In this document: piece by piece, positions 3,731 through 48,431 of the stretch
Numbering within the stretch: position 1 is the stretch's first letter
How the letters are laid out: every line of letters starts with the position of its first letter
Assembly (NCBI GenBank): GCA_963575745.1
Contig: CAUYUJ010000002.1
Location: 868,001 to 932,000 of the forward strand
DNA: 64,000 bases
Direction: 5' to 3'
From: Prorocentrum cordatum
Lineage: Eukaryota
The notes under the pieces: generated by a model
What the model was told of the DNA's origin: nothing
Database searches by the model: none
What the model saw: the letters and a program-made list of their open reading frames with translations, nothing else
Program-made: the position numbers and the translations under genes

Positions 3731-4376
3731 CTAGAGCACGTCCAGGTCAGCTAACGGACAGGGAGGCTCTTGAGGCGTAAAGGGCAGGTCTCCTCCCGGC
3801 CCCAAAACCGTCCTAGCGACGGCACGCTGTAAGGCGAGCCCCAAAATGCCCCACCACCTGTGCTGCAGACTTAGTGCGGCCCCTCTTCTGACTCGCGCGT
3901 GAAGGTCCCGAGTACGCTCTTGAGCTAAAGTGGGCACGAGGGAGATACTTTGTTCTCCCCACCTGCCGTAAACTTCGGCCCCTAAGCATTGGAGACTACC
4001 TAGGCCGCTGCTAATGACCTCAGCATAGGTGCTGTCGTTCTCTTGTTGCGCCCTCTCCAGCAATCTTCCTCCTCTGTTGCTCGTCCCCCCTCTCGGCTGA
4101 CCTCTCCCAGTTATGGGGTTCACCACCGTGACGTCGCAGAAGAGTGGAAGTCCTCTGGCCGCATTCGTGCACGTTACCACGATATCTAATCGGCGCATGT
4201 CCCCCTGAGGTATTGGTATGTTGGTAGTGTTTAGGTGCCGCTCCAAATTACGGTCAGGTACTTGTCCGCCAGCCTCCTTGAAGACTTGCCTCCAGGCGGC
4301 CATCAGTTCACTATGTCGGTTTTGCCACCCTCCGCCCGTCCCGTCTGCCAGGCGTCTGTGGCCATGCACATCCGGC

Positions 4377-17829: not shown

Positions 17830-18333
17830 TGCGCCCCTCTCCTCGCGCTCGAGGAAGAGACTGCAGCGGGCTGGGGGCGGAAAAGGTGATGTGAAGTGAC
17901 GTGCTCGTTATACTCGTCAATCGTGTCGAATATGATATCGCAGCACAGGCGTCGATTCTCACTCGGGGGTGTAAGAGGCCATCGAAACGAAGCTCGGCCC
18001 ATTCGGCGTGCTCGACTACCCCACGCGCTTCGGACATGTTGGCGAGCGCTGTCTTTAGTAGAGAATGTTTGTTTGCACCATGGGCACATGTTACACGTGG
18101 CGCGTGTGCAGAGTGGGTTACGTTGTCCATGTTCGCCTCCTCGAGACTGGTACATGTGTGATGTGGGGGCTCCAGGGAGCGAAAAGGATTGTGAGCATAT
18201 CAGTCCGCGCCCGTCCGGATGCGCGCGCGCAAATGCGGTGAGACCCTCCTCCGTCGGAGGTTCCATTGCCCGAGCTGGCCCTCGGAGGCGGCGAAAGTAT
18301 GCGGTCTCTCCCTCGGTGAGGATGGCTGCCTTC
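17826..18333 (-). mobile_element. 3' end of a LINE ORF2 (C-terminal zinc fingers), the distal part of the LINE interrupted by the DNA transposon
   Basis: CPWCKQTFSTKDSARQH and CDIIFDTIDEYNEHVTSHH; joins in frame with the 30213+ segment once the insertion is removed (VDPAALK-AAILTEGE). Confidence 0.75.
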
Positions 18334-18625
18334 GAGAGAGCGTGATCCACCGCCGCTTTACTGTGGAAAATTGCTAACTTTTTTCCTCCGGAACCCGGGG
18401 GTCGCCCCCCCCCCCCCCCCCCCTCCGAAAATCCCCCCCCCTGCTGGAACCCCTCCCCCCCCCCCCCCTCCTCCCCGGCAAAACCACCCCCTCCCCTAAC
18501 CCCTCCCCCCCCCCCCCCCTCCCCGCTCGAAAACCGGGAGGGGGTCACTACCGGTTCGAACCCCTCCCCCCCCCCCCCCCTCCGGATTCGGAAAACCGGG
18601 GGGGTCACTACCGTTCGAACCCCCG
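18334..18625 (+). repeat. Left TIR plus subterminal GGGGTCACTACCGGTTCGAACCCC repeats
   Basis: Motif at about 18541 and 18601; inverted copies at about 29975-30185. Confidence 0.85.
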
Positions 18626-19205
18626 CCCCCCCCCTCCCCTCCCCCCCCGTATGAACCTTGATCCCGGACCATTTGGCCAATGAGATCCGCCTAGGCCACC
18701 TAGGCGATCCAGGGATCTATGTTATCTGGGGGGGGGGGAGAGGGAGAGGAGAAGGAGGGAGGAGGAGGAGGAGGAGGAGGAGGAGGAAAAGGATGGGAAG
18801 GAGGAGGTGGATTAGGTGGGGGAGGAGGGTGGGTTAGTCGGAGGAGGAAGGGAAGGAGGAGGAGTAGGAGGAGGAAGACGACGACGACGATGACATCGGA
18901 GGAGTGGGAGCATTCTTGGGACATCAAGACCTGGGGTTGCTTAGATGTGTGGGCCACTTTGAAGATCTGCCGGGCTCCTCTGTGCCGCTCTGAAGCCCGA
19001 TGCGTTACAGTCGGATTTTATTCGTAGGTCGACCCTGCCAGATGAAGGGTGCCCTTATGTCCTGTCTATCCCGTCCCACGTCCTCTGCGCGTCTTCTGGT
19101 TGTTCAGGGCCGCGTTGTCCTCGGAAGAGTCTTGTGTCCTCTCGGGTGTCCTGTCCAATTAACTTCGACTGTATGTTTGCCAGCATCGTCGTCATCATCG
19201 TTACC

Positions 19206-19227
19206 TCCGTCTCCATTTTGGCTCAAG
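19206..19227 (+). other. Relic dinoflagellate spliced leader upstream of the cargo gene
   Basis: TCCGTCTCCATTTTGGCTCAAG vs DinoSL DCCGTAGCCATTTTGGCTCAAG, 20/22; 54 nt before ATG 19282. Confidence 0.8.
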
Positions 19228-19281
19228 CGGTTTCTTACTACTGGGAACAACATCCTCGATGCACTTTGCAAGTGGTGCGCC

Positions 19282-20412
19282 ATGTCGACCTTTCGCTGTT
19301 CAGGGATTCTCGGTGTGGCGCGACTGTTTGCTGCCAGGCATTCTGTGGCGCTGCAAGAGGTTAGCGGCCGCCGCGCCCAAGCAGCGTATTATGATTGCCT
19401 GGAAGAACACAATCTGTTGCAAGATGTGTATGTGAAATATCATGTTATGAATCAGCAGGGTGAGGCTCACGATGTAAGGGTTCGCAGGTCCGCAGCTGCA
19501 ATCCTTACGAACTGCAAGATAAACGAGGAATACACAGACCCTCAGACGGTCCTCTGTCTCCGCATCATAGACAAAGTCAGGGCGAAGTCATTCGAACGAC
19601 GGATGGCCGCCGCAGTGTGTGCCACGATCAACGGCCGTGTCTTTCTGAAGGAATTGTTAAAGAAACTGCCGGGCGACGGTTGGACAGGCGATCAGTTTTG
19701 GGAAGCTGCTCATACTTTAGTGAACAAGATTGACCCCGAAGAGCTTTTCACCGGCGCCTTCAACCGGCAGGCGTTCAATTCGTGGACCAAACGTGATCTG
19801 GCGAACAAGCGCATGCACAGAATCAGAGACAAGTTGAGTGGTGATATCAATTTTGACAACGCATCGCGCCTGGAAGTGTCATTAGACCTTGTAAGAGCGT
19901 GCGGCAAGTTCTTGGGCAAGAACGCCTTTTCCTTGTTGGAGCAGTCCTACGCGAACAACTATCGCCGCCCCGGGTGGTGCTCGCAACACGGGTCGCTCAT
20001 GGGGCCCGGCGCCTTGGCGGGCGTCAACATCATCAACGGGACATGGAAGCAGAGCGGGACGGGCAGCACGCAGCTCGGGGATGTGTTGCAGCAGTTCGAC
20101 GACTCCCACGCTAATATGCAGAAGCTGCGCCGCTTGTTCCGGGAAGATTTGCAGTCTCTCCAGGTGTTGGTCAAGAAGACACGCGGCGCGAAGCGGGCCC
20201 TGGCTAGGGAGCTATGCGAAGCCGTGGAACACATTCTTGGTATGTCTGACACGGGCTTGCAGTTCGTGTACTGCGAGATAGCCAAGGTCGTCACGTTCCA
20301 CTACAACCTCCACAAGCGGTACTGGCGCCTGCGCAAGCTGCGCGGCGACGCGGGCAATGCGGCTGGCAGCGACGCCGAGGACGGCGACCACGGGAGCGAC
20401 AACGACGACTGA
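19282..20412 (+). CDS. Cargo ORF-A, 376 aa; putative aGPT-Pplase1 / amino-acid:DNA transferase-like (HhH glycosylase fold, 5-hmdU modification family)
   Basis: Ordered motifs LFTGAFN, CGKFLGKN, MGPGALAGV and LQFVYCEIAK resemble the family pattern F.GAY / G.G.F.A / GPGA..GL / LCE..K; intact in both copies; start chosen from the SL relic. Confidence 0.55.
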   Translation: MSTFRCSGILGVARLFAARHSVALQEVSGRRAQAAYYDCLEEHNLLQDVYVKYHVMNQQGEAHDVRVRRSAAAILTNCKINEEYTDPQTVLCLRIIDKVRAKSFERRMAAAVCATINGRVFLKELLKKLPGDGWTGDQFWEAAHTLVNKIDPEELFTGAFNRQAFNSWTKRDLANKRMHRIRDKLSGDINFDNASRLEVSLDLVRACGKFLGKNAFSLLEQSYANNYRRPGWCSQHGSLMGPGALAGVNIINGTWKQSGTGSTQLGDVLQQFDDSHANMQKLRRLFREDLQSLQVLVKKTRGAKRALARELCEAVEHILGMSDTGLQFVYCEIAKVVTFHYNLHKRYWRLRKLRGDAGNAAGSDAEDGDHGSDNDD

Positions 20413-20580
20413 GCTCGTGGCGCGCACATGGCGGGCAGGCGCATCGGTACCACGATGGAGCTTGGAAGCGCACCGCCACGATGAACGTCCAGCGATGTCT
20501 GTCAAGCAGCCGCTGCGCCTGGAGGGCGGAGTGGCCCTGGCGGGAGCGATCCTTCTTCGCATGAGAGTGCTTTGCACGCA

Positions 20581-21480
20581 GAAAAACAGTTCCTGCCCGC
20601 TATAGCTTTTGGGGGGCCAGAAACCTGGTAGCAGGCAAAAGCGTTTCGGAGTGTTTGGGTTTTTACCAGTGTCCTTCGAGGCCCGACTGACGGCCGTTGC
20701 GATTGATTATCGCGGCCACAGAAAACGACGACTTTGCGAAGATAAAGCTTATGGGGCCCTGCCCAAAAGCACAAAAAAACGCTCTTGCCCACTAGGGCTT
20801 TTTTGGGGTCGGAAACTTGATAGTGGGTAAGAGCGTTTTGGCTCGTTTTGGCATCGCCCAATGTCAGTCGAGGCCCGACTGACTGCCGCGGCGATTAAGT
20901 AGCACGACCATAGCAAACAATAACTTTGCCGAAAGAAAGCCCAGGGGCCCAGCCCAAAAAACACCCAAAAAACGCTCTTGCCCACTAAGTCTTTTTTGGG
21001 GTCAGAAACCTGATAGTGGGCAAGAGCGTTTTGGCTCGTTTTGGCATCGCCCAATGTCAGTCGAGGCCCGACTGACTGCCGCGGCGATTAAGTAGCACGA
21101 CCATAGCAAACAATAACTTTGCCGAAAGAAAGCCCAGGGGCCCAGCCCAAAAACACCCCAAAAACGCTCTTGCCCACTAAGTCTTTTTTGGGGTCAGAAA
21201 CCTGATAGTGGGCAAGAGCGTTTCGGCTTGTTTTGGCCACGCCCAATGTTTCTCGAGGCCCGATTGACTGCCGCGGCGATTAATTAGCGCGACCATAGCA
21301 AACAAAAAGTTTGCCGAAAGAAAGCCCAGGGGCCCAGCCCAAAAACACCCAAAAAACGGTCTTGCCCACTAAGCCTTTTTCGGGGTCAGAAACCTGCTAG
21401 TGGGCAAGAGCGTTTCTGTTTGGTTTGCGTGTCTTTTGATTGTTCGAGGCCCGACAGACGGCCGCGGCCCCCGAGATGCA
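20581..21480. repeat. Tandem array of about 193-bp units, each with a hairpin CTCTTGCCCACTA-N26-TAGTGGGCAAGAG
   Basis: Hairpins at about 20583, 20776, 20969, 21161 and 21353; one unit fewer in copy 2. Confidence 0.9.
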
Positions 21481-21619
21481 CCTATATCATCGTCATCGTC
21501 GCTACCATCACTGCAACCGCTGCGGCTCGACGGCAGAGTGGCCCCAGAGCGTGCTCGTCGCGCCCTTCGGGGAGGGAGAGCGAGCGCCCGCCGCTCGCGG
21601 TGCCAGCTAGCGTTCGGGG

Positions 21620-22655
21620 ATGTCCTGGGACGAGGGAGATCGGGGTCGGAGCCGCAGCCCGCGGCCGAGCCCGCGGTCGACTCCCGCGCCCACTCCATCC
21701 GCAGTGTTCTCTCCGGGCAAGTACAAGGAGAGCGTCTTCCAGAAGTTCGGCCGAAGTTCAAGCGCTTTCGCGGACCGCTTCACGGCGGTGGCCGACGACG
21801 TCGACATGGGCGACGACAATATGTCGTTGAACGATCAGGTCGCGAAGACGCACGCTGCCGTGAAGAAGCTGGTGGAAAGGAACGCGGAGCGCCTCGGGGA
21901 CAAGTATGACGAGCTATGCGTCGTGAAGACCCAGGTCGACGAGATGGAACGGGGCGGCGCCCGCGTCCACGACCTCTTCCTCCTGCGCGTGTTCATGGCT
22001 GTCTTCGGCGGGCCGAGGAGCCCGTGGCGCGCGCATGACGGGCAGGCGCATCGGTACCACAACGGAGCATTTCGGTACACCGCCGCGATGAACGTCCAGC
22101 AGGCCCTACGCCTGGAGCACGCGGTGAACCGAGCGGACGCGATCCTCCTTCGCATGAGCAAGGACAACAACGTGAAGCGACCGTCTTGGGACGAGGGGTG
22201 GCTCCTTGACTACACGAGCCCTGCCGCGGCGACGCAGGCCGACGTGGGCGACGACCCCGATGAGAGCTTCTCGATCGCGCGCAAGATGCTCCGGGAAAGT
22301 TTGAACAGGTTTCTCACTACTGGGAACAACGTCAACATCCTCAAGACATTCTGCAAGTGGTGCGACCAGCCGAAGCAAGCGGAGCCCACGTTGGCGTTCA
22401 AGGACAAGTGCTTGAAGATCCAGCCTGGCCAGGCAGCAAGGGAGATCAAGAAAGCCCCCGAGGTCAACTGCTACGCGTACATGGACTTATCCATCAAGTA
22501 CAAGCCGCCCGCGGCCGACGTGGACAGGTACGACCTCATGATGGCCACCCTGTACGGGGACGACGTCGAATCAAAGGAGATCGAAGTCCTTGGCGAGGCG
22601 CTGGCCCTCATGCACAAGCGGCAGCCACCTCGCGTGCGGGTTCGGAAGGGAAAAG
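21620..22655 (+). CDS. Polyprotein ORF-B exon 1 (N-terminal region, D5_N-like, first half of Walker A)
   Basis: Open frame ending ..RVRKGK-G at donor AG/GTAAGG; LAFKDKCL..CYAYMDLSIKY resembles the pre-helicase D5_N region. Confidence 0.75.
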
Positions 22656-23843
22656 GTAAGGCGCTCAGGACCGCGATCCAGCGATCTGGGGATCTAGGGC
22701 GCCTGGGGGGCCTAGATATGCGATCTATGCGATCTATGCGATCTATGCGATCTAGGTCGCCACCTGTGCGATCTATGCGATCTATGCGGTCTATGCGATC
22801 TATGCGACCTATGCGATCTATGCGACCTATGCGATCTATGTGACCTATGCGATCTATGCGATCTATGCGGCCTATGTCGCCACCTATGCGACCTATGCGA
22901 TCTATGCGACCTATGCGACCTATGCGATCTATGCGACCTATGCGATCTATGCGATCTATGCGATCTATGCGATCTATGCGACCTAGGTCGCCTAGGTCGC
23001 CGCCTGTGCGATCTATGCGACCTATGCGGTCTATGCGATCTATGCGACCTAGGTCGCCGCCTGTGCGATCTATGCGACCTATGCGATCTATGCGATCTAT
23101 GCGACCTAGGTCGCCATCTGGGCCTAGGTCGCATAGATCGCATAGATCGCATAGATCGCACAGGCGGCGACCTAGGTCGCATAGATCGCATAGATCGCAT
23201 AGGTCGCATAGGTCGCATAGGTGGCGACCTAGGTCGGCACCTATGCGACCTACCTATGCGATCTATGCGATCTATGCGACCTAGGCCGTCACCTATGCGA
23301 CCTATGCCTATGCGATCTATGCGATCTATGCGATCTATGCGACCTAGGCCCAGATGGCGACCTAGGTCGCATAGATCGCATAGATCGCATAGGTCGCATA
23401 GATCGCACAGGCGGCGACCTAGGTCGCATAGATCGCATAGATCGCATAGGTCGCATAGATCGCACAGGCGGCGACCTAGATCGCATAGATCGCATAGATC
23501 GCATAGGTCGCAAAGATCGCACAGGTGGCGACCTAGGTCGCACAGATAGCATAGATTGCTTAGATCGCATAGGTCGCATAGATCGCATAGGTCGCACAGG
23601 TGGCGACCTAGGTCGCATAGATAGCATAGGTCGCATAGATCGCATAGACCGCATAGATCGCATAGGTCGCAAAGATCGCCCAGATGGCGACCTAGGTCGC
23701 ATAGATCGCCTAGGTCGCATAGATCGCGTAGATCGCATAGGTCGCATAGATCGCATAGAGCGCATAGATCGCATAGATCGCATAGGTCGCATACATCGCA
23801 TGGGTTGCATATACCGCATAGATCATGTGGTCGCCTCCCTCAG
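22656..23843 (+). other. 1188-nt phase-1 GT-AG intron made of palindromically arranged 9-bp repeats (GCGAYCTAT)
   Basis: Donor GTAAGG, acceptor CTCCCTCAG; splicing yields the Walker A GKGGNGKS. Confidence 0.85.
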
Positions 23844-26800
23844 GTGGCAACGGGAAGTCGCTGCGGTCGAAGCTGACCTTGGCTGCGCTCGGCGAGACCA
23901 TGGTGCAGTTTGCCAGCACGTACCTCCTCACCAGAGACAGGGAGTTCCAGGTCTCCGCAAAGCGTCTCATCGGCGCCATGGCCGTCATCTTCCAGGAGGT
24001 GCAGAAGGGCGAGAAGATCCAGGAGGTCGTGGCTAAGAATTTGTTCGCCAGGGCAGAGCTGCTCGTTCGTGAGAATCATGGGAAATCAGAGGACGAGCGC
24101 CATTACGCGTGGACGTTCGCGGACTTCGTCATCGAGTTGAATCACGCTTTCCGCATCGAGTGCGACGATGATGCGCTTCACGCCTGGCGGCGCCGTCTGC
24201 TGCTGATCGCCTTCGAGGGCGACTTCACTCGCAACACGGCCTTGGTCTCGGTTGAGCATGGCCTCTTCTTGGCTGACCCCGAACTGGAGGACTGGGCCTC
24301 ATCTGGCGTGGCGGGCTTCATCCACATGACCCGAGGCATCCTGCCTCTCATCGAGAAGTACTCGGCGTCCGCGGCCTACGACAAGCTGGACAATCCCTCA
24401 CCAGCGCGCGCTGCAATGAACGAAGAGTTCCTGAACGACATCAGGGCGTCGGACGGCCGCGACGGAGCTGGCCTGGCTGGCGGGCTTCGTGGCCACGGCG
24501 ACCAGGCGGACGCCGCGTCGGATCCACTCTCTCGGGCTTCCACGCTCCTTGCCGTCATGCATCTCGACGAGGACACCTGCGTGACGGACAGCCAGCGAGA
24601 GCGCGCGAAGGCGGGGGCTTGCATCAAGGGGGGGCGGCAGTCTGACAAGAAGGATGCCTGGGACCGCATGAAGGCCGCGGCCATGTGGAAACCCGTAGTG
24701 CGACAATGGGGCCGCAAGGTCCCCTACTACTATCCAGCCTTGTGCGCCGACGCCGACCTCAGCGCACTGTTCCCGGACATTGACAACCTCGCGATTCCCA
24801 TCGGGGCCGTCTTCCCCGAGAAATTCAATTTGGACCGCCTGAAGGACTACGTGAGGTGCCCGGAGAGGAAGCGCAACCACCATGCGCTGATCAAGCATCT
24901 TGAGGCAGCGCAAGCAGGGGCGGCGGGCGTCAGAAAGCAAAGCAGGTCTTCGCAAGATGACCTGGAATAATTTCAGGCGAGGTCGCGACACGAGCAGTCG
25001 CTCAAGTCAACCTGGGCGGCGGCTAACCAGTTGCTCGAGGAACGTGAGGGCGGCGATGGGGCTCTCCAGGTCAAGTACCACTTCCCAGCCATCGGGGACT
25101 TGCGCGTGCGCAGCAGGAGACGCGCAGAGGGCACGGCGTCGCAGAGCCTGAGCAAGCAGATCCAGACTATTGTGCAGCCAGACGTCGTGAAGTTGGACTG
25201 GCGCAAATGTTTCCTGACCCTCGCGCCCCAGGTCATGAAGCGCATGAAGATAAATCTGAACGGCCACTCCTCGGAGCAAGGGCGCGCCATCGAGGCCGTT
25301 GCCGCATGGCCCGACATCGACGCCAAGAAGACCCTGGCGCTCAGCGTCCTGTTTGGCAAAAAGAATGCAGGCGACCAGTGCCAGGCCATGGAGCGGGACG
25401 CGAGAGTGCTCCGCTGGGCGGCATCGTCTGCACTGCCCGACGTTTTCAAGGCCGCCGTCGAGGACGAGAGGGGCAACCCCGAGCTCACGTGCGTGTCGAG
25501 GCTCCTCGAAGGGGCGGAGGACGCCTACACCGAGGCGTTGGTGAAGTTCGTTCAGGAGAAGCGGGGCAGCGCGGTGTCCCACCTCGCTTGGGAATTCGAC
25601 GGCATCGGGGTGAACGTCGGCGTGCTCGATGACGCGCACGCTTTCATCACCGATGCTGAGAACTACGTCCACAAGGCGACGGGTTACAAGATGCACCTCG
25701 CTGCGAGAAGGAGCGCTCGTTGCTTGAGACACTTGCGGCGAGCGGACAGCAGCTGCCCGTCGACGACGGGCCTGGGGGCCCCGACCAGATGGCGTCGTAC
25801 TTCGCCGATGGCAATTGCATCCAGGCCGCAGTGGTCGCATCCTGCGGGTGCGGCAAGCCACCCCTTCCAGCCCCAGAGGCAAACTCGCGCTCCTATCGCG
25901 AGGTCGCCCAGCACTTCGATATCAGGCTCCACGGCGCCTGCGTCCTGGACGTGCTCTTCCAGCTCGCATCGGGCCGCGCCCTGGATGCAGGCGACTACCT
26001 CTTGCACAGCGAGCCTGGCGGGGAGGCTCATTGCGTGCTTCTCCGCGCGTCGGCAGTGGTTCAGGGGGAGAACGGACCAGAGCAGACGTTCGATCTGATC
26101 GGCACCCATTGTGGTCACGAGGAACGGCGGTCCAAGTGCAGGGTTAGCGCGGTCGAATTTTGCAGGGCGATCGGGGGCGCGGCCGATAAACGCCTGGCCG
26201 TGCTCTTCCGCATTAACGGCAGCATGGCCCGCTCCACGGATGCTTTGATGGACCTGCAAGCAGGCGCCTCTGCGAGTCCGCCAGTCGATGTGCAGCTGCC
26301 GATCGCCGCCGCAGAACCAGGCGGAGTCGACGTGGGGTTGCCGTCCGACTGCGAGGAGGACGCCGACGAACCCGACGAGCCCTCATTCATGGAGATGTTC
26401 TGCAACGTGCTTGGAAAGGAGGCCGCGGACTACCAGGTCGAGGTCGGTGGATGTCGATCCCGCGTTCAATGCCGCTGTCTCCTGTGCCCTTGGCGATCGT
26501 TCAGCCGCCGCGAGCACCTCATCGAACACCAGAAGCACCACAGGCCGCCGAAGTTCGTCGCGTCTCGGGAGGACGATGCCCTCTTCAAGGTCGCTATGTC
26601 GCTGTACAGGTTCGACCGCGTCTGCTCGGTGTTGAACCGCGCGGCTCAGAAAGACGGCGGCTACCTGGCCCGCGCTGCCGGTCTGCTTCGAGAATGGAAT
26701 CGCGACGCTCCAGCGGAAGCGCTGGAGGCTGCGCGCCACTCCAACGAAGCCCACCTCGTCTTCGTCTTCACAGAGGCGGGCCCGCGGTACTGGTTGCGCG

Positions 26801-28302
26801 CCAAGTGCATTGACTGCGTCCGCATTAACGCCAAGATCTCGTACACCAAAGGCTTCGAGGATTCCCTGATCAGCCTGGCCTTGGTCTCGCACGGGGCGAT
26901 GAATGGCGTGATGGGCCATCTCCACAGGCAGTGGTCCCGCGACGGCACGTCGCCTTTCCTGGCCTGCCGCCCCCAGCTCTTGCGGGAGATCATGGACCAC
27001 GTGTTCCGCCGCCCCGACGGCCTGGCGCAGCTGTCGGTGCGACGGCTCATGGGCGAGGAAGTGGCCCGCGGCGAGTTCACGGCACTGACCCACGATGGCA
27101 CCTTCAAGTTCTTGTTCTCGGTCATCGGCCAGAAGAAAATGGACCAGAAGAAAGGCGGGATCTACGTCGGCCACACTCTGATGGGGATGACAGGAGCTTG
27201 CCCTGGATTCAGCGTCCAGCCCGATGAGAGCACGGAGAGCTTCGGTGCAGCGGTCAGGGAGCGGCTGACCCCCGCTGCGGTCGAGCAGGTGCGGATGCTT
27301 TACTCCGACGCCCCGAGCGAGAAGATGTTGGAGCATCTGCCGAGGTGTCTCGGCGTGGCACAGGACAGACTGCACATTGCCTTGCGGGCCGAGCAGTGCA
27401 CGGACGGGAAGAGGACGGCTTGCTCATTTGAGTTGCTGCAGCTCACGAGGAAGTTTTCCCGTCCTCTCGGCGTGCCCGAGGAGTACTTGACGAGGGAGAT
27501 CTACCATGGCCTCCCGATGCCCGAGGTGGTCTGGGGTGACGCGCAGCCCGCGCGCGAGCGTGCCGACAAGGACTGGGCGGATTTCTGCAACGAGCCTTTC
27601 GTCTCGCACGCGGAGTGCGTGGCCGAGTTGAGGCGCATAGTCCAGAAGCACGAGAAGATCATGGACAGGAAGAATTCCAAAGGCGTGCCGCTCCGAAAAG
27701 TTTTGGAGAGCGCGAGCTCCACGAATAACTACTACTACTTGCGCAACAATTCGGTGTTCGCCCAGCTCTCTCGCGGGCAATTGGTCGTCCAGGGCGCGCC
27801 CCAGAACGAGGCCGAGCACGGGAACATGAAGCGCTGGGCGTGGTGCGTGTGGCAGCAGCACGAAGACCGCGTCCACGTGCTCAAGGAGGTCTACGCCCTC
27901 TACCGCATGCTCGTCCATGCCGCCCAGCACGAGTCGCTCGGCACGCGGCTTCCGCCCTTGCGGCTCGCAGAGATGTTGGCCGGCCAGATCGCTGCTGGCG
28001 GTCTCAGGGACGGCATCGGGCCAGACGGATCGCTGCCTATCGGAGAGGATGGCCCGAGCGTATCTGTGCCCAACGGAAATGGGCCCAACCGCGGCGCACT
28101 CAGGAAGTCCCTCGTCAAGGTGGACGTCGGCTTGGCCGCGAAACAGAAAGAGGGAAAGAACAAGAGGGCAGCCGCGTGGAGCAAGGCTATGCCTGCAAAG
28201 AAGAAGCCGTGGGGGCACAGGAAGAGGGCGACGTCGACGAGGAAGTCCGCACCCTCCACCGTGCACGCCGTGGTCGAGGAGGTCGCGGGGATCCAGGCCT
28301 GA
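23844..28302 (+). pseudogene. ORF-B exon 2 (SF3 helicase, PolA-like, OTU-like, C2H2, DDE transposase); this copy has a stop at 24968-24970 and a 1-nt deletion near 25706
   Basis: GNGKS, VIFQE, ELNH, AWRRRLLLIAF; KLDW, KTLALSVLFG, WEFDGI; DGNC..AHC; CLLC..H..HH; DGTFK, YSD, DRLH, NEAEH; both lesions are absent in copy 2. Confidence 0.8.
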
Positions 28303-28749
28303 GGCGCAGTTCCCTGAATCTTGCGCTTCGAGGCGCGAAGCGCCGTAAGATTGCCCTGCTCTTGCGCCGCTATTAGGCATCGCCGCCGCACGCCTCTGTG
28401 ACTGCACTGTTCAGTCGGGAGACAGTAAGACTGGGCGTGATAAGGAGAGCACGGTGATTTATGACCACTCTGCTCGGCCGCTAGCATTTTGCACGGCCAC
28501 CGCAGGTATCATTTACTATCTTAGTACAGTCAGGAGGTTGCACGACTGGGGCTGCGAAAGAAAATGAAACCATGCATCGGGAATGTCGTACTTCTCATTG
28601 TTATTACCAGAAGTTTTGCACAATGCCCGTGGTCAGTGGTGAAGCTCGGATGCGTACCCCAGTATGCCATAAAGGCAAGCACCCAGATCTTCATACGTTG
28701 GACTGTTCTTGTGGCGGTCCCGGCGACCCCCAAAACAACCGAAAAACAT

Positions 28750-28801
28750 CTCTTGCCCACTAAAGCTTTTTGAGTGCCAGAAACCTGGTAGTGGGCAAGA
28801 G
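28750..28801. repeat. Solo copy of the 193-bp-array hairpin downstream of ORF-B
   Basis: CTCTTGCCCACTA (28750-28762) pairs with TAGTGGGCAAGAG (28789-28801). Confidence 0.85.
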
Positions 28802-29129
28802 CCTTTTTGGTGCTTCTGTGCAGCTAAATGTTTCTCGAGACCCGACATGCGGCCATTACGATTAATCCGCGAAGCCGGTGGAACCACAAACTTATCACAG
28901 GGAAGACCCAATGATCTTGCCCAGAACAAGACAAACACAAACATGAGCTTTGCCCCTAGGGTCTTTCGGGATCGAGAAAGCTGATATTGAGCACGAGGGT
29001 ATGTAGTTTAGTTTGCTTCGAGCCTACCCTTCGACGTTGATTGGATGCGCATTCAGGCCACCTAGATCTTTAGATCTCTAGGTGGCCTAGATGGGGCTCC
29101 TAGGCCGAATGGTCTGGGATGAGGCCTTT

Positions 29130-29162
29130 CCCCCCCCCCCCTCCCCCCCCCCCCCCCCCCCC

Positions 29163-29209
<47 letters not shown>

Positions 29210-29219
29210 ACCCCCCCCC

Positions 29220-29311
<92 letters not shown>

Positions 29312-29950
29312 ACCCCCCACACCGCCAGCAAACGACTCCCGGTCCCCACCACCGTCCGCATCACATCCCCCACTGGTGTTCCCAGCACCACTGTCCTCAC
29401 CACCGCTGTCCCCACTGGTTCCACCACCGCCCCTACTGTCCCCACCAGTGGCCCCACCACTGTCGCACTGTCCCCGCTGTCCCCAGAACTGTTCCCACCA
29501 CGGTTCCACTCTCCCCACTGTCTCCACGGCCCCAACCACTGCCCGACTATCCCCACTGTCCCCACTGTCCCACTGACTCCTCCGCTGTCCCACTGAGCTG
29601 TCCCACTGTTCCCACCACTGTCCCCACTGTCCCCACCACTGTCCCCGCTGTACCTCTGTCCCATTGTCCCACCGCCGTCCTCGCCACCGCCTTCACCGCT
29701 GTCCCCACCACCATTGTACCCTCCACTGTCCCACTGTTTCCACCTCATTCCCATTGTCCCCACACCACTGTCCCCACCACCACCGTCACCACCACTGTCC
29801 ACTGCCCCCCCCTGTTCCCACCATTGTCCCCACCACTGTCCCCACCACTACGTCCCCACCACTGTCCCCTGTCCCACTGTCCCACCACTGTCCTCGCTAT
29901 CCCCTCAACACTGTCCCCGCAACACCCACCCCCACACTGTCCGCACCCCC
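29130..29950. repeat. Poly-C run followed by an ACTGTCCCC(ACC) minisatellite inside the element's right arm
   Basis: Direct inspection; the C-run is about 190 nt here and about 30 nt in copy 2. Confidence 0.85.
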
Positions 29951-29974
29951 ACTCGGTTTTCGAGGGGGGGGGGG

Positions 29975-30212
29975 GCTCGAAACCGGCAGTGACCCCACCC
30001 GGTTTCCGGATCCGGAGGGAGGTGGGGGGGGGTTCGAAACCGGTAGTGACCCCCCCCCCCCCCCCTTTTCATGATGAGCAGGGGGGGGGGGGGGGGGAGG
30101 GGTTCGAACCGGTAGTGACCCCCCCCGGTTTTCCGGAGGGGGGGGGGGAGGGGTTCGAACCGGTAGTGACCCCCCCCGGTTTTCCGCCAGCAGCGGTAGA
30201 ACACGCTCTTTC
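29975..30212 (-). repeat. Right subterminal repeats and right TIR
   Basis: About four copies of GGGGTTCGAACCGGTAGTGACCCC, then AGCAGCGGTAGAACACGCTCTTTC. Confidence 0.85.
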
Positions 30213-33200
30213 CTGCCTTCAAAGCCGCGGGGTCCACCGGCAGTAGTGCTTCGCGCACTTCGTCGTTATGGAAAAGAGCAACATATGAGTGGCCCCAACC
30301 CCTCCTCACGGGAATCCGCCGTCCTACTAATACCAGCAAAACTCCGCATATCTATCTCTACCTGGCGCGTAAGAGGTGGGGCTCGTCGAGCAAGGTGCCC
30401 TCGGGGACCCAGGGAAGGCGGGCCGTTGTCCAAGGGCCCCCAGAGGGCAGCAATGACCTGGGCGGGGGCCTCGGGGTCACGGACCATCTTCTGGGCCCAG
30501 GCGAACCTTCGGGAGGCCTGCGCGCACCTAGTAGGGATGGCCTCCGCTGTCTACGAAGAGCAGAATGAGGCAAGCTCGCAGGGTGCGCCCCCGTCCAGTC
30601 GGCAGCTTTCTCTCGCTCGAGCGTGCGCAAATACTTGGCAATGATGCTGTCAATCTGGTCAGTCATCTCTGCCGTGAAAGCGTAGGGCTCATTCGCCGAT
30701 AAGCCTGCTTCGATCGCGTGCCCTTGAAACGATGGGATCTTGAGCTTACTCGATATTTTGCTTCTTCAAAACTTTCTCTATTTAGCCCATCCAGTTTTCA
30801 TTGCCGATCTCCTATATTGACATTCTCCCATAGTAGCTAGATTCCAAGCGCGGCGGCCTCAAAGATACCGAGCCCTCGCTAGTACTTCGCCCTCCGTGGT
30901 TAGTTCTCCGAATCGTTGTGTCTCTTGTTTGTTGTGAAAACTAGGCACGATGTTCCTCTTCTCCTTGTTGTGTAATAACTCCACTTCTCGAAGGGCGACG
31001 CCGAGATGTGCGTCGCTCTGGTTCGTGAGAAGGCGGGCCTCTCCGGCCTCTCCACCCGGCGCCGGTAGCTCATCGGAAATATCGTCAGCGATTACGCTAG
31101 CACCTCCTTCGAGTTCCCTCGCGAAGATGCCGCGCTTCAGAGTAAAGCTGAGATGCGGCGGTCGGGCATTTCCCCACATCTCGAACGGTCGTTGCATGAT
31201 CTTCGCGAAGGCAACTGGTTCTTCACTCGATCCCATCAGTCCCCCGCACCCGTGTCGCACTACCAGGTTCCTTTCATCTTCCCATGGCTCGCCCCCTCCT
31301 TCCGCGAAGCTCATGAAGATGGCTGCGCGCGCGCAGCTCGATGCAGAAAGAATGGAACGTCCTGCTCGCTAACTAGCTCTTGTGCTGCCTGCTGCCGTGC
31401 CTGCGGGGTGGTGGAGGCGAATGCATTCGACGCGTCGCGGAGGTTGTCGAGGTGGCCGAGATTCCTTCGGCGAGGACGAGCGCCCGCGCCAAGCTGGACT
31501 GCGAGGGCGTCTTCGCGCCGTCGCCCTGGTAAAAAAACCGCGGAGCTCTGCAGGCCAACTCGGGGTCCGTGACCTCGATCCCCTCCTCTCAGTGGTGCTC
31601 CGAAAAAAGCTGTTCCAGCGCGGGCAAAATGCGTGAATGAGTCTTTCCCCGCCAGGCCCCTGCATTCCATTCGGCTTGTTCAGAGGATGGCCCCACGAGA
31701 GGTGCCCAAGCTTGGGGGTTCTCTTGAGGCCCCGAGACTACCAATGAATAGCTCCGAGATGCTCGCTCGCCAGAGAAGGGGGTAGTTCGCCTACTCGTTC
31801 AGCGCCCAGCCCGAGTCTCGGCTCGTCGGCCTTCGAAACATAGCTGGCGTCTGCCGCCATCAGGAATATCTCCGATGACAAACTCCAGGGGGGGGGGGGG
31901 GGGGCGCGACGTTTTGGGCGCTTCTTGAAGAACTTCAATGTCTGCTGCGTGTCTTTTTTTTGGCCCAGTGCTCGTGCCGCTCAAGATCTTCGGGGCTGAG
32001 ATCGCCGATGGGTTAGGCGAGGGCTCGAGCTCTGCCGCAAAGTCGATCGCCAGGGCATCCATTCCGCCATTCTGCGGAAATTCTTCTAGGACATGTAGCC
32101 ACTCCTCTCTGTCAGAGCGCGGCTGCGGGATGCCATGCTCGCGCTTGCGAGGGCCGCCGCAGCGCTCAGCGAGCAAGAGAAAAACAAACCAAAACGATGC
32201 GCTTCGGCAAATCGGCGGAGTCGGGCGACCGCGTGCATGTCAATTTCGATTCGTCTCCGTCGGTCGGCACGTTCTTGTCGCATGAGTCGTCGGAGCTCCA
32301 GTCGGATCTCTCGAAGTTCGCTGTATTCGGGAAATCCGATCGAGTTGGATCTCAAAATCTCGGCACATTCGTAGCCCTGCCCCCGAAGTCGATCCCGAGC
32401 TACCGCTCGTAGTCGTGCGAGTTCGTCTCGCCGGGCACGCGTGCGGCTGACCTCCGGATGAGCTTCCTTGGGCCTAGCCAGAAAAACCACGCCGTGTCTC
32501 TAACCAGCGTGGTCCACCACTGCCGGCAGGCGTCCAAATCTCCACTTTGCCTATGTCGGTCTAACTCTTGGCGCTCCCGAAATTTGTTCCCAAGGCCTCC
32601 CGGAACTCGAGTCGATTGGCTCCTTCTTGCAGAGCAAGCGCGATCCTGTCACGGCCCCGACGCTGTTGGGTGGTCTCCGGGGCCATGTGTTAGTAAGCAG
32701 CGAATTCCAGGATAATGGGGGCGTGCTCGCGTGGTCTAGCATCGGGCATGACTTGCAGCCGCCTGGCCGCCTTCCAACGAATCGGACACCTCCGAACTTG
32801 GTCCAATCGGCCCATGGGGATCAGGATGTGGTCCACCGTGCTCGCGGCCCCGTCGAGGCCAAAGTAGGTAGGGCCCGCCTGAGGGTAGAAGGAACCCACG
32901 TCCATGACGTCATGGGGAATAACCAGCTCATCCCAGATCATGTCCCCGACGAGGGACTGAATGCCAAGATGGTGCTCGCCTGCATTCGGGATCTTCTCGG
33001 AGCGCCTCAGACTCAAGGTTCCCGAGGATATCGGAACCCGTTGCGGTACCCGAAGCCATAGTTTAAATCCCCAGGGGCGATGGGTGTAGAGCGTGACGGC
33101 GTCTGTTTGGAACGATCAATAATGATTGTTGCGAACTCCCTCGATCCCTTCTCTGATTCTTTCATTTTTTTCGCATGTTCGTCCTTGATCGGTGGCAGGT

Positions 33201-33570
33201 ATGCCAACATGAAGGTGAGGTCGGACGATCCTTTGGCAACTCTGACGGCGAGACCACGTCCCTTGGCACACGAAGGTGGCGCATGAATCTCACGTGCGCG
33301 TTTCCGTTCGAATCTTTTCCCAACCATCAACATGCATCCAACTGCTCTGTTACTGAACGGTGCAATCTCCCATCCTGCAAAAATAGAGGATCCTCGCTCC
33401 TGTGCGACTTCTTGAACAGGTCGGTCTGCCTGTGCCCTGACTGAGTCTAGTACCGGGCAACGCTACGATATCCAGATTCAACTCCTTCCATCTCTGTTGT
33501 GTCCTGCCTACTTCAATCAAGGACAACGGGTTGTACAACGCACGTCTGACAAAGGATGGCACCATAGGCC
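30213..33570 (-). mobile_element. Decayed LINE ORF2 (APE endonuclease plus RT), the proximal part of the interrupted LINE
   Basis: YNPLSL..DIVALPGTR, AYLPP, GDLN, PTYFG..TVDHILIP, REHAPI (APE); GCGGLMGSSEEP and neighbouring RT-like segments; many frameshifts. Confidence 0.7.
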
Positions 33571-35210
33571 CTTGTGGGCGAGCGCGGGCCCCTGGCTCCT
33601 CGCCCCGAAGAGCTCTGGGTGGGCCCAGAAATTCACGAAGTGTGTAAGGTCATGGTGCAGTGCGTGGATGCCGCGCGCGGAAAGGGGTGATTCCTGAAGC
33701 GGCTAGAAGGGAGGAGGGGGAAGAGGGTGGTTTCGAATTTGTCTTTGACAGCGGTTGATCACTCAGGAACGATGGGCCGCGGTTAGTTGGAATGTGATAG
33801 CGGGCCCAATGTAGACATTGCAGGCGCGTGTCGCTCAACGACTCCGCCGTCTAGGAACAATGATATTGTGGAACGACCAACCGTGGTCCGTAACTCCAGG
33901 GGAACCAACCGTGGTCGGGATCTCCAGGAGACCGTGCACCAAGCCCCCGGCTGGTTTTCCGCGCGAGATCACTTCACCGCTCCCGCATGAATCCGTTGTC
34001 AGCATCACTCAATAACTGAGGCAAATCATCATCCACTGGGAAGGGAAACCACGGCTGGACAATGAGGCAGGGAGCGCGCACGCTTGCTTGAACTATGTGA
34101 AGATCGCACTCGGTCAATCAAGGGTGTCGGATACAGTCGGGCGGGTGCTAATGGGGGGTGGCCCAAATGGGGGGTGAACTTGTGGGGTCAAAGGCCCGGA
34201 TAGCAGGGCGCAAAAAGGACGTGGAAAGACCTGTCGAAGAACTCTGGAAAGAGATTCCGAAAGACCTTCTGAAGAACTTCCAGGCACCCGTATTGGGAAA
34301 CGCTTAGAAAAAAACCTCTCGGGACCCGCTGAATGCTCAAGCAAGTCGCGCCGATGCTTTTTCACGGAAGACAAAACGACCTCCGGGGCTATCCTGCGGC
34401 TCTGGCTTCTTAATATGGAGCCTTCTTCTTACGATCCATCCAGGAAGAAGTGGGCCCTAAAGGGACCCCTTCGGGCCCCTTCTGGAACCAGCAAGTGCCC
34501 GAAAAGGCCCCTTTGGGGCTCTTTCCTTCACCCCCAATTAGCGTCACCCCCCATAGCGATGAGCCGAGGTCGGTAGTCGGTTGGCCATCTCCCACGAATG
34601 ACAGGCCACAGTTGTGAGTCAGGGGGGGCCGCCTTCTGGGCCGCCACAAGTTACTTCGACGGAGACACACACTGGGTACAATGGCTGGCATGGGCCCCAT
34701 GGGCTGCATCTTCTTTTGAATCGCCAACAGCGGCTGGCTACTCCCAAGGAGCGGCCGACCGCAATTCTTTTTTTTAAACCGTCCCGTGGTGTTGGGTCCT
34801 TGTTTTGGGAAAGCGGTCCCCGCGTTCCTTCCCTCCCTCCTCCCTTCTTTCCTCCCCCCCCTCCTCCCTCCTCCCATCCCTGCCTTGCTTGCGCATGTTC
34901 CTCGTCGTCGTTTCGTGCCCCAGAAGGAGCTCCACCGAAGGCCCCAGTTGCGGTGCCCAATGCATGCGCAATGCGTTGCCCCCATCTGCATTATGAATTC
35001 GTGGCCCCATAAGGAACTCCACCTGATGCCCCCCTGGCGGTGTGCACACGCGTTTCCCCCACCCAGCACAACGCTTCGGGGCCCCAGAGGGAGCTCCACC
35101 TATGGCCAAAATGGCGGTGTCCTCATTCGTTCGCCCCACCCAGCACGGCGCTTCGTGGCCCCATAGGGAACCCCACCTAAGGCCCCAGTGGCGGTGTGCA
35201 CAGGCGTCTC

Positions 35211-35310
35211 NNNNNNNNNNNNNNNNNNNNNNNNNNNNNNNNNNNNNNNNNNNNNNNNNNNNNNNNNNNNNNNNNNNNNNNNNNNNNNNNNNNNNNNNNN
35301 NNNNNNNNNN
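35211..35310. other. Assembly gap (100 N)
   Basis: N run. Confidence 1.
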
Positions 35311-35690
35311 GTTTTCCGATACCCTCCTCGCTCAGGCGGGGCCTCCCTGCAGGGGTGGGAGGGGCACGAAACAATGTAAATAGTATGGTTTTCTGATACC
35401 CTCCTCGCTCAGGCGGGGCCTCCGTGGAGGTGTGGGAGGGGCACGAAACCATCTAAATAGTATGGTTTTCCGATACCCTCCTCGCTCAGGCTGGGCCTCC
35501 CTGCAGGGGTGGGAGGGGCACGAAACCATGTAAATAGTATGGTTTCCGATACGCTCCTCGCTCAGGCGGTGCCTCCCTGGAGGGGTGGGAGGGGCACGAA
35601 ACCATGTAAATAGTATTGTTTTCCGATACCCTCCTCGTTCAGGCAGGGCCTCCCTGGAGGGGTGGGAGGGGCACGAAACCATGTAAGTAG
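35311..35690. repeat. About 5 tandem copies of a 77-bp unit
   Basis: GTTTTCCGATACCCTCCTCGCTCAGG...GGGGCACGAAACCATGTAAATAGTATG repeated. Confidence 0.9.
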
Positions 35691-35699
35691 TATGGCTTT

Positions 35700-37432
<1,733 letters not shown>

Positions 37433-38049: not shown

Positions 38050-38681
38050 GTATGAACCTTGATCCCGGACCATTTGGCCAATGAGATCCGCCTAGGCCAC
38101 CTAGGCGATCCAGGGATCTATGTTATCTGGGGGGGGGGAGAGGGAGAGGAGAAGGAGGGAGGAGGAGGAGGAGGAGGAGGAGGAGGAAAAGGATGGGAAG
38201 GAGGAGGTGGATTAGGTGGGGGAGGAGGGTGGGTTAGTCGGAGGAGGAAGGGAAGGAGGAGGAATAGGAGGAGGAAGACGACGACGACGATGACATCGGA
38301 GGAGTAGGAGCATTCTTGGGACATCAAGACCTGGGGTTGCTTAGATGTGTGGGCCACTTTGAAGATCTGCCGGGCTCCTCTGTGCCGCTCTGAAGCCCGA
38401 TGCGTTACAGTCGGATTTTATTAATAGGTCGACCCTGCCAGATGAAGGGTGCCCTTGTGTCCTGTCTATCCCGTCCCACGTCCTCTGCGCGTCTTCTGGT
38501 TGTTCAGGGCCGCGTTGTCCTCGGAAGAGTCTTGTGTCCTCTCGGGTGTCCTGTCCAATCAACTTCGACTGTATGTTTGCCAGCATCGTCGTCATCATCG
38601 TTACCTCCGTCTCCATTTTGGCGCAAGCGGTTTCTTACTACTGGGAACAACATCCTCGATACATTTTGCAAGTGGTGCGCC

Positions 38682-39812
38682 ATGTCGACCTTTCGCTGTT
38701 CAGGGATTCTCGGTGTGGCGCGACTGTTTGCTGCCAGGCATTCTGTGGCGCTGCAAGAGGTTAGCGGCCGCCGCGCCCAAGCAGCGTTTTATGATAGCCT
38801 GGAAGAACACAATCTGTTGCAAGATGTGTATGTGAAATATCATGTGATGAATCAGCAGGGTGAGGCTCACGATGTAAGGGTTCGCAGGTCCGCAGCTGCA
38901 ATCCTTACGAACTGCAAGATAAACGAGGAATACACAGACCCTCAGACGGTCCTCTGTCTCCGCATCATAGACAAAGTCAGGGCGAAGTCATTCGAACGAC
39001 GGATGGCCGCCGCAGTGTGTGCCACGATCAACGGCCGTGTCTTTCTGAAGGAATTGTTAAAGAAACTGCCGGGCGACGGTTGGACAGGCGATCAGTTTTG
39101 GGAAGCTGCTCATACTTTAGTGAACAAGATTGACCCCGAAGAGCTTTTCACCGGCGCCTTCAACCGGCAGGCGTTCAATTCGTGGACCAAACGTGATCTG
39201 GCGAACAAGCGCATGCACAGAATCAGAGACAAGTTGAGTGGTGATATCAATTTTGACAACGCATCGCGCCTGGAAGTGTCATTAGACCTTGTAAGAGCGT
39301 GCGGCAAGTTCTTGGGCAAGAACGCCTTTTCCTTGTTGGAGCAGTCCTACGCGAACAACTATCGCCGCCCCGGGTGGTGCTCGCAACACGGGTCGCTCAT
39401 GGGGCCCGGCGCCTTGGCGGGCGTCAACATCATCAACGGGACATGGAAGCAGAGCGGGACGGGCAGCACGCAGCTCGGGGATGTGTTGCAGCAGTTCGAC
39501 GACTCCCACGCTAATATGCAGAAGCTGCGCCGCTTGTTCCGGGAAGATTTGCAGTCTCTCCAGGTGTTGGTCAAGAAGGCACGCGGCGCGAAGCGAGCCC
39601 TGGCTAGGGAGCTATGCGAAGCCGTGGAACACATTCTTGGTATGTCTGACACGGGCTTGCAGTTCGTGTACTGCGAGATAGCCAAGGTCGTCACGTTCCA
39701 CTACAACCTCCACAAGCGGTACTGGCGCCTGCGCAAGCTGCGCGGCGACGCGGGCAATGCGGCTGGCAGCGACGCCGAGGACGGCGACCACGGGAGCGAC
39801 AACGACGACTGA
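38682..39812 (+). CDS. Cargo ORF-A, copy 2 (aGPT-Pplase1-like), intact
   Basis: Near-identical to 19282-20412; SL relic at 38606-38627 (19/22). Confidence 0.55.
   Translation: MSTFRCSGILGVARLFAARHSVALQEVSGRRAQAAFYDSLEEHNLLQDVYVKYHVMNQQGEAHDVRVRRSAAAILTNCKINEEYTDPQTVLCLRIIDKVRAKSFERRMAAAVCATINGRVFLKELLKKLPGDGWTGDQFWEAAHTLVNKIDPEELFTGAFNRQAFNSWTKRDLANKRMHRIRDKLSGDINFDNASRLEVSLDLVRACGKFLGKNAFSLLEQSYANNYRRPGWCSQHGSLMGPGALAGVNIINGTWKQSGTGSTQLGDVLQQFDDSHANMQKLRRLFREDLQSLQVLVKKARGAKRALARELCEAVEHILGMSDTGLQFVYCEIAKVVTFHYNLHKRYWRLRKLRGDAGNAAGSDAEDGDHGSDNDD

Positions 39813-48399: not shown

Positions 48400-48431
<32 letters not shown>

Follow-up and report, generated by a model that had tools for sequence, protein, structure and literature searches.

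The 64,000-nucleotide stretch of Prorocentrum cordatum DNA that we analysed in full (contig CAUYUJ010000002.1, positions 868,001 to 932,000; hereafter, the window) contains an 11.9-kb element, at 18334-30212, which very probably represents a family of dinoflagellate DNA transposons with a single large gene. The predicted product of this gene combines, in one chain, an N-terminal domain, a D5-type superfamily 3 (SF3) helicase, an exonuclease-free minimal family-A polymerase, a papain-fold domain, a C2H2 zinc finger and an IS256/Mutator-like DDE transposase. The family is real, conserved and apparently undescribed, and it is plausible that its members replicate themselves. The window is eukaryotic, GC-rich DNA, and the best named protein matches are from Prorocentrum cordatum, with identity of up to 95%.

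The initial annotation described terminal inverted repeats (TIRs) that agree at 20 of 24 positions and an 8-bp target-site duplication (TSD), and both were confirmed: the octamer CTGCCTTC is present on both sides of the element, the 20/24 agreement was reproduced, and none of the 40 windows of a block-shuffle control contained an identical pair of 8-mers together with inverted ends of at least 20/24. It should be noted that the real window holds 39 such pairs; two of them combine the left end of the element with the right end of either of its two copies (the second copy is described below), and the remainder are found in sub-terminal repeats or in the intron microsatellite. The target duplication of IS256 elements is 8-9 bp long, and the usual range for Mutator/IS256-like elements is 8-11 bp. 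Just inside both ends there are sub-terminal repeats of 50-61 nt with the core GGTTCGAACCGGTAGTGACCCC, inverted relative to each other, which are likely to be binding sites of the transposase.

We also compared the contigs of four public runs with the region. Three contigs of the marine metagenome run X3 match the element up to exactly 30212 and are unlike the window from there on; beyond this position, they are also different from one another (agreement 0.62), as expected for other insertion sites. The flanks of the element occur nowhere else in the window, except for the duplicated right flank. Word depth in run X1 was 25-37 in the interior versus 1.8-5.9 in the flanks; this depth is not a copy number and was not used. 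Contigs of other runs break at the C run in the 3' part of the element (Table 1).

Self-comparison of the window aligned 18649-35210 with 38050-54300 at approximately 98% identity, i.e., a block of approximately 16.5 kb is repeated with a period of approximately 19.4 kb. The duplication extends 5 kb past the right end of the element at 30212, into a gap of 100 N (35211-35310). Because the block shares 5 kb of right flank, the two copies in the window are paralogous results of one segmental duplication and are not independent insertions. In addition, the second copy has no left end: the left 315 nt are missing, and a 106-nt tandem array stands in their place. The duplication ends in satellite DNA and the scaffold gap; the block may represent a genuine tandem duplication, or else two haplotypes that the assembler put one after the other.

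The two copies differ by 25 substitutions over 6.7 kb and carry different lesions. In copy 1, there is a stop codon at 24968-24970, one nucleotide is deleted at 25706 and four are deleted at 21610; in copy 2, four nucleotides are inserted at 46742. At 24968/24969, non-stop letters are found in contigs of all four other runs, and contigs of three runs have an extra base after 25705; therefore, the stop codon and the 1-nt deletion are private to copy 1. Once the lesions of both copies are set aside, the reconstructed protein comprises 345+1214+272 = 1831 amino acids, so that the spliced, copy-combined frame of the initial annotation was reproduced from the open reading frames and the alignment of the copies. 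In copy 2, the frame 43081-46746 runs through 1221 uninterrupted codons from the helicase through the DDE domain, and a 95%-identical protein of 1190 aa, which comes from another source, likewise reads in one frame from helicase to transposase.

The predicted intron has a donor G/GTAAGG at 22655/22656 and an acceptor CCTCCCTCAG that ends at 23843, with exon 2 starting at 23844; the spliced chain reads ...KGKG-GNGKS, and among distant relatives in which the domains on either side are both present, the P-loop is uninterrupted across the splice position in 22/22. In run X2, contigs continue past the acceptor site, as expected of DNA, and no RNA run was among those listed for the region; because of this the intron is to be taken as a prediction from splice signals and relatives only. 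With respect to its composition, the intron (22717-23824, and 41928-43083 in the second copy) consists almost entirely of 9-nt TATGCGATC-type arrays, the orientation of which changes several times, which makes it a long imperfect palindrome; the array length varies between the copies by indels of 3-57 nt. At position 22657, two X1 contigs have C instead of the donor T, corresponding to a GC-AG intron in other copies; GC donors are common in dinoflagellates.

For analysis of the domains, AF2 models were built with relatives for residues 1-830 of the copy-2 frame (pLDDT 85.8, pTM 0.72) and for the last 631 residues of copy 1 (pLDDT 85.5, pTM 0.83). Across relatives of 20-30% identity, the putative catalytic residues are near-invariant. 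The helicase, occupying model residues 1-210, is predicted to be of the D5 type of SF3, in agreement with the motif-based assignment of the initial annotation: the best values were obtained for the African swine fever virus PrimPol helicase (Z 13.6, rmsd 2.6, 185 aligned residues, 20% identity), followed by the SaPI5 primase-helicase (Z 12.2) and vaccinia D5 (Z 11.5), whereas other SF3 helicases (AAV Rep, papillomavirus E1, SV40 T-antigen) scored approximately 6. The Walker B acid, the motif C Asn and the arginine finger are invariant, with E59 in 22/22 relatives, N107 in 23/23, and R124 and R125 in 27/27.

The middle part of the chain is, according to its model, a minimal family-A polymerase of the TV-Pol kind, as had been proposed. 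Model residues 311-632 correspond to residues 519-927 of the Klenow fragment (Z 12.8-12.9, approximately 295-298 aligned residues) and include thumb, palm and fingers, and the polymerase part has no exonuclease domain. Of the 94 Foldseek matches at E<=1e-3, those to Klenow, Bst and Taq rank highest. Z values of 12-13.6 were obtained for Pol theta, Bst, Taq and T7 polymerases and of 8-10 for T7-like RNA polymerases; family-B polymerases reached approximately 7, over the palm only. Among the viral predicted structures of BFVD, virophage replication proteins are on top (Zamilon, E 4e-7; Qinghai Lake virophage, E 1e-5), and giant-virus D5 primase-helicases come next. In the minimal TV-Pol core, two antiparallel helices form the thumb, a hairpin carries an invariant Arg, the palm has two conserved Asp, and the fingers contain a conserved Asp and an RxxxK motif; such enzymes have been predicted to be primases (Iyer et al. 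2008, PMC2579912; here and below, papers are cited from the excerpts of them that were available). The model contains two long antiparallel thumb helices (347-371 and 378-408), followed by a hairpin (414-435) that carries R432. This residue is conserved in 44/44 relatives, D459 in 47/48, K503 in 53/54 and D593 in 60/61; further conserved acidic residues are E566 (55/56) and D567 (53/56).

Two domains that were absent from the initial annotation, a papain-fold Cys/His domain and a C2H2 finger, are located between the polymerase and the transposase. Model residues 642-800 match approximately ten papain-fold proteins at Z 6.2-7.3, including C39 peptidase domains (6.2-7.0), Josephin-2 (6.9), tegument-like deubiquitinases (6.5) and PeiR (6.3). 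In papain-like alpha+beta folds the catalytic Cys precedes the catalytic His; in the element, C666 (59/61), H729 (56/57) and H737 (55/57) are conserved. We call this domain protease-like provisionally, because the Z scores are middling and the domain was modelled only within the chain 1-830.

The C-terminal part is predicted to be an RNase-H-fold DDE transposase of the IS256/Mutator-like type, which agrees with the earlier assignment by motif to the group of Mutator-like elements (MULEs), P, hAT and Kolobok. The best and longest match is ISCth4 of the IS256 family, which ranks first in Foldseek and first among 48,161 chains in a wide search (Z 11.8, 287/401 residues aligned; Z 12.3 and 284 residues in a second-look alignment). 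Retroviral integrase cores scored approximately 10, over approximately 130 residues, and lower values were obtained for Hermes (8.8-9.9), the P element (6.6), Transib (5.9), RAG1 (4.8) and piggyBac (4.4-4.6). Conservation of the putative catalytic residues is high (D1092 in 90/91, D1163 in 85/85, D1182 in 80/81, H1185 in 77/81 and the E of the NEAEH motif in 43/43). Between the second D and the E there is an all-helical insertion, modelled as helices 323-454 of the C-terminal model, with the DxxH motif. The MULE motif is typically CxxH, and the insertion domain of Mutator/IS256-like enzymes has the motif [C/D]xxH.

The fusion is not confined to the window. When the first 1200 residues of the copy-2 frame were used as the query of an exhaustive HMMER search, 404 cluster representatives were obtained (E<=1e-3). 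Prorocentrum copies are present at 95, 80 and 51% identity, and other relatives, from unnamed sources, at 93, 80, 66, 50 and 42%. Using iterated profiles on the stored matches, we found at least 23 relatives (20-36% identity) with helicase, polymerase and transposase, the order of which is always kept; the helicase is N-terminal to the polymerase in the window, and this is also true of all the relatives analysed that have the two domains. Each relative of full length is one protein, 1,850-2,770 aa long, on a contig of 6-10 kb, and in the fullest relatives a conserved N-terminal domain precedes and adjoins the helicase. The six named relatives are all dinoflagellate entries described as 'unnamed protein product' (three from Prorocentrum cordatum, two from Polarella glacialis and one from Symbiodinium sp.). 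A metagenome locus, L001 (4357-11700 of a 17.8-kb contig, 47% GC), is 32% identical and has the same domain order over several introns and exons. Thus, of the expectation that the same fusion would be found elsewhere, in independent copies with TIRs and a TSD, the fusion itself was recovered in at least 23 relatives, and the copies with both ends were not, L001 having no convincing ends.

Table 1. Positions of the element, its predicted domains and its second copy in the window
Feature	Position	Strand	Details
Left target-site duplication	18326-18333		CTGCCTTC, 8 bp
Left terminal inverted repeat	18334-18357	+	24 nt; 20/24 versus reverse complement of 30189-30212
Left sub-terminal repeats	18498-18644	+	61-nt period; GGGGTCACTACCGGTTCGAACC motif
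472-aa open frame	18994-20412	+	In the 5' part; without family match; includes a degenerate piece of the element's N-terminal domain
192-nt tandem repeat	20582-21427	+	4.4 copies; upstream of the gene
Exon 1	21620-22655	+	Start codon; 345 codons and first base of split Gly codon; conserved N-terminal domain
Predicted intron	22656-23843	+	1188 nt, GT-AG
Predicted D5-type SF3 helicase core (copy 1)	23844-24451	+	P-loop GKGGNGKS across splice, Walker B E, motif C N, RR finger
Predicted family-A (TV-Pol-like) polymerase (copy 1)	24752-25716	+	Broken by stop 24968-24970 and 1-nt deletion 25706
Papain-fold Cys/His domain (provisional)	25744-26220	+	Conserved GNC...H...HC
C2H2 zinc finger	26470-26541	+	C886 and C889 in 81/82, H903 in 81/84, H907 in 83/86
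Predicted IS256/Mutator-like DDE transposase	26851-28299	+	D 27094-27096, D 27307-27309, DxxH 27364-27375, E 27808-27810; stop 28300-28302
C run	29130-29318	+	Approximately 189 nt, 94% pure; 3' non-coding part
Right sub-terminal repeats	29964-30186	-	Opposite orientation to the left set
Right terminal inverted repeat	30189-30212	-	24 nt
Right target-site duplication	30213-30220		CTGCCTTC, 8 bp
Second copy	38050-49311	+	Without left terminus; part of segmental duplication
Intact polymerase (copy 2)	44011-44976	+	Uninterrupted version

Several further observations concern the 5' part of the element, the N-terminal extensions of its relatives and the surroundings of the element. A chimeric Prorocentrum gene model, P0011, joins the 5' pieces (18994-20412 and 20409-20552) to a proteasome ATPase, which suggests that such elements are mis-annotated as host genes. 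The long members of the family (P0161-P0165, P0068 and P0107) have N-terminal extensions of approximately 460-1,340 residues with no family match, and the extension of P0103 has a weak match to PD-(D/E)XK nucleases (E 1.5e-4). The extensions of approximately 1,000 aa in long relatives have no match to the 5' part of the element and are absent from the element in the window. Two distinct 77-nt satellites are found near the duplicated blocks: one forms a 2.6-kb array after copy 2 (54011-56607), with a stub before the gap (34998-35207), and the other, just past the gap (35311-35700), has five copies that are 91% alike. The blocks are separated by a low-GC island (40% GC) with (TAC)74 at 36378-36600 and an AT-rich ATAATA array at 37189-37432. 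Purine-rich GGGAGA-like short repeat blocks are present on both strands at 3592-3731, 8414-8589, 10481-10576, 18728-18910 and 57224-57431; the block at 18728-18910 sits just inside the left part of the element.

DDE transposons are normally thought to be dependent on host replication or repair. For this family we lean, on balance, toward a self-synthesizing element, in which the helicase and polymerase would supply the synthesis that copies it. The zinc finger and the DDE domain would bind the ends and the sub-terminal repeats, cut and join the DNA and yield the 8-bp duplication, and the helicase-polymerase module would copy the element. The likeliest route, which we propose tentatively, is copy-out/paste-in, as in the IS256-family elements to whose enzymes the transposase is closest: one strand would be nicked and joined, giving a loop; the element's own helicase and primase-polymerase, and not the host replisome, would copy out a double-stranded circle; and the circle would then integrate. 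Elements of the IS256 family, ISCth4 included, move by copy-out/paste-in via a replicated circle. Copying-out by the element's own replisome is favored because the closest structural relative is a copy-out/paste-in enzyme and TV-Pol enzymes are predicted primases; the titles of two further papers (PMC7581432, PMC10061031) suggest the same. This route appears likelier than the replication of an excised form that was suggested by the initial annotation. The chain may also be split by its protease-like domain, giving a separate replicase and a separate transposase, a suggestion that we consider doubtful. The identity of the family and this mechanism, taken as a whole, are in our opinion probably the best explanation of the data.

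A number of observations weigh against this explanation or against parts of it, and we list them together. An empty site was not recovered: a 20-nt junction probe had no matches at <=3 mismatches, and none of the contig joints listed (15 of 89) connects 18333 to 30221, so that the clean empty site reported earlier was not substantiated. Likewise, a degenerate 23-nt pattern of the ends had no matches in the metagenome contigs, and at L001 no convincing inverted ends or duplication were found in the 16.7 kb examined. Consequently, the ends are described from a single insertion for which both were examined. No circle was seen; joints in X2 that link two sub-terminal repeat blocks lie in G/C-rich repeats and were, because of this location, not taken as circle junctions. 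Both copies in the window are broken. The assignment of the domains rests on predicted folds and conserved residues, because sequence libraries recognised no domain beyond a weak zinc finger: Pfam and PHROGs gave no useful match for four long frames of the window (no MULE or Transposase_mut at E<=1), the Pfam MULE and Transposase_mut families had no match at E<=0.01 in 35 long relatives nor at E<=5 in 17, and phmmer and a 17-member profile against PDB sequences detected a weak C2H2 alone.

The same applies to some details of the domains and to the history of the fusion. The RxxxK finger motif of TV-Pol is unmatched; K503 is kept, and position 499 is I, L or V. In 16/22 relatives, the Walker A lysine is replaced by glutamine (GGVGQS); in most of the family, the helicase might therefore not be a normal ATPase, and that of the largest clade may bind ATP without the usual hydrolysis. 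The window lineage keeps GKS. The GGVGQS relatives are P0103, P0107, P0122, P0141 and P0161-P0172; their Walker B E, motif C N and RR finger are invariant. We also found 19 transposase-only proteins beginning with M, and in a quick, midpoint-rooted tree the window lineage is placed among transposase-only forms, with most of the fused forms in one clade; hence, the transposase can apparently live without the replicase. On this tree, the label fused/alone (alone being predicted proteins that start with M) requires 5 changes versus 15.6 in shuffles, 0/500 of which were as low, and at least three changes are forced by well-supported branches; no order of events was drawn from it. Finally, eukaryotic Mutator, hAT and P-type enzymes with [C/D]xxH are, to current knowledge, cut-and-paste transposases.

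The last point leads to a rival explanation, in which the element is an ordinary cut-and-paste Mutator-like transposon, and its replicase copies an excised linear or circular episome or fills the donor gap, outside of strand transfer. This is unlikely, albeit worthy of serious consideration. The DxxH motif is conserved (80/81 and 77/81), Hermes (Z 8.8-9.9) and the P element (Z 6.6) are also among the structural matches, and the replicase resembles that of small viruses which replicate as free genomes. However, the best match, and the sole one that spans the whole catalytic region, is the copy-out/paste-in enzyme ISCth4, and no origin-like feature or episome was seen. The resemblance to viral replicases could also mean that the element is a remnant of an integrated polinton-like or virophage-type virus, or of a plasmid, which integrated by means of a DDE enzyme and whose capsid genes are lost or act in trans. 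The top viral structural matches are indeed virophage replication proteins and giant-virus D5 primase-helicases, and approximately 2,500 polinton-like elements have been reported in Polarella (PMC12721341). We consider such an origin improbable, as the element has one large gene in 11.9 kb, its other long frame (472 aa) matches nothing, and the full-length relatives, with 1,850-2,770 aa on 6-10-kb contigs, leave no space for capsid genes. Furthermore, the order helicase-then-polymerase is the reverse of that in viral PolA-SF3 proteins, and viral PolA is paired with tyrosine recombinases and DDE enzymes with PolB (10.64898/2026.10.13.758929).

The two remaining rivals dispute that the unit is mobile or that it is a unit. 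Catalytic residues kept over deep divergence, and relatives annotated as ordinary proteins in three dinoflagellate genomes, are compatible with a domesticated, immobile host gene family, next to which the ends and the duplication would be coincidental. This is very improbable given that 0/40 shuffles had such ends, that inverted sub-terminal repeats are found at both ends, that other contigs break exactly at the end of the element, and that there are near-identical copies with private stop and frameshift lesions and hundreds of diverged clusters. As for an artefact, i.e., a helicase-polymerase element nested in, or misassembled beside, an unrelated transposase gene, the N gap and the near-identical duplication do indicate that the assembly is imperfect here. 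Yet the 1221-codon frame of copy 2 reads from helicase to DDE, as does the 95%-identical protein of 1190 aa, and the domain order is kept in at least 23 relatives. Separate nested insertions had been named in the initial annotation as the outcome that would speak against a fusion; because these relatives, L001 and the 1190-aa protein keep the order, a nested insertion or an assembly chimera is, for practical purposes, ruled out.

Having weighed these rivals, we compared the helicase-polymerase-transposase family, as a transposon, with known systems. With IS256/Mutator, it shares the RNase-H-fold DDE domain with a helical insertion, inverted ends, the 8-bp duplication and an upstream zinc finger, and it differs in having DxxH, in the lack of a Pfam MULE or Transposase_mut match, and in the fusion to helicase, polymerase and protease-like domains that together span approximately 1,200 aa; the papers listed report no such fusion for this superfamily. 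Some plant MULEs carry a ULP1 protease. As far as their available excerpts go, two surveys of Mutator and DDE transposons mention no dinoflagellate, helicase or polymerase (PMC6446971, 10.1101/2021.09.26.461848). With the TV-Pol/PolA-SF3 replicases (the Sputnik V13 type of virophages, polinton-like viruses), the family shares an exonuclease-free family-A core joined to a D5 helicase, with thumb, Arg hairpin, two Asp and a finger Lys. In contrast to the viral proteins, in which the polymerase comes first (PMC2579912, 10.64898/2026.10.13.758929), the helicase comes first in the element; moreover, capsid and packaging genes are absent, and a covalently joined DDE enzyme takes the place of the viral tyrosine recombinases. 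According to the excerpts of a study of small eukaryotic DNA viruses, PolA is found with tyrosine recombinases, DDE with PolB, and the polymerase N-terminal to the helicase (10.64898/2026.10.13.758929).

Similar to Polintons/Mavericks and casposons, the element carries its own integrase and its own DNA polymerase. Theirs, however, are a protein-primed family-B polymerase and an rve integrase or Cas1, encoded by separate genes, with capsid genes in Polintons (PMC6431247, 10.64898/2026.10.13.758929), whereas the element combines a family-A polymerase, an SF3 helicase and an IS256-like DDE enzyme in one chain. A Polinton/Maverick was rejected on account of the A-type polymerase fold, the whole-domain transposase match to the IS256 type and the other long frame without a family match. 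In bacterial elements (SCCmec-type and others), a TV-Pol gene occurs in linkage with genes for a helicase and for a resolvase, an integrase or an RNase-H-fold transposase, and such elements have been proposed to be replicative transposons; there, the genes are separate and the transposases are of IS630 or IS605 type, and the available text describes no eukaryotic nuclear case or fusion (PMC2579912). Helentrons have, in a very long transposon protein, a papain-fold Cys/His domain as well, namely an OTU-like protease (PMC6431247); unlike the element, in which the protease-like domain lies between polymerase and DDE, they have an HUH nuclease and an SF1 (Pif1) helicase. Helitrons and Helentrons have neither inverted ends nor a target duplication. 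A Helitron/Helentron was rejected because the element has an SF3 helicase, inverted ends and a duplication, and no HUH domain was found in family or structure searches. In the full-text literature, with Repbase Reports and subscription journals outside coverage, no DDE transposon of eukaryotes was found to be described as having a D5 helicase or a family-A polymerase, and this includes the relevant excerpts of PMC2579912, PMC6431247, PMC12130899, PMC12721341 and 10.64898/2026.10.13.758929; the combination of helicase, polymerase, protease-like domain and DDE is apparently undescribed.

The family gives an identity to a large set of dinoflagellate entries that are annotated as 'unnamed protein product', and its compact helicase-primase-polymerase is possibly of practical use. 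A 2019 review speculated that transposons of new kinds could arise if a nucleic-acid-primed polymerase and a primase were joined to an appropriate integrase (PMC6431247, in the excerpts available), and the family looks like an example of this. Moreover, it breaks the pairing habit of viruses, at least as described in the excerpts cited above (PolA with tyrosine recombinases, DDE with PolB), and reverses the order of polymerase and helicase. In its most far-reaching form, which we consider possible but speculative, the interpretation is that of a third independent class of eukaryotic self-synthesizing elements: Mutator/IS256-type transposons with their own helicase and primase-polymerase, which would move by copy-out/paste-in without the host replisome, with the two halves of the protein split by the protease. 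If this is true, virophages and polinton-like viruses, with their PolA-helicase replicons, would be connected to cut-and-join DDE transposons through this family as a missing link, and it may be a contributor to the very large genomes of dinoflagellates.

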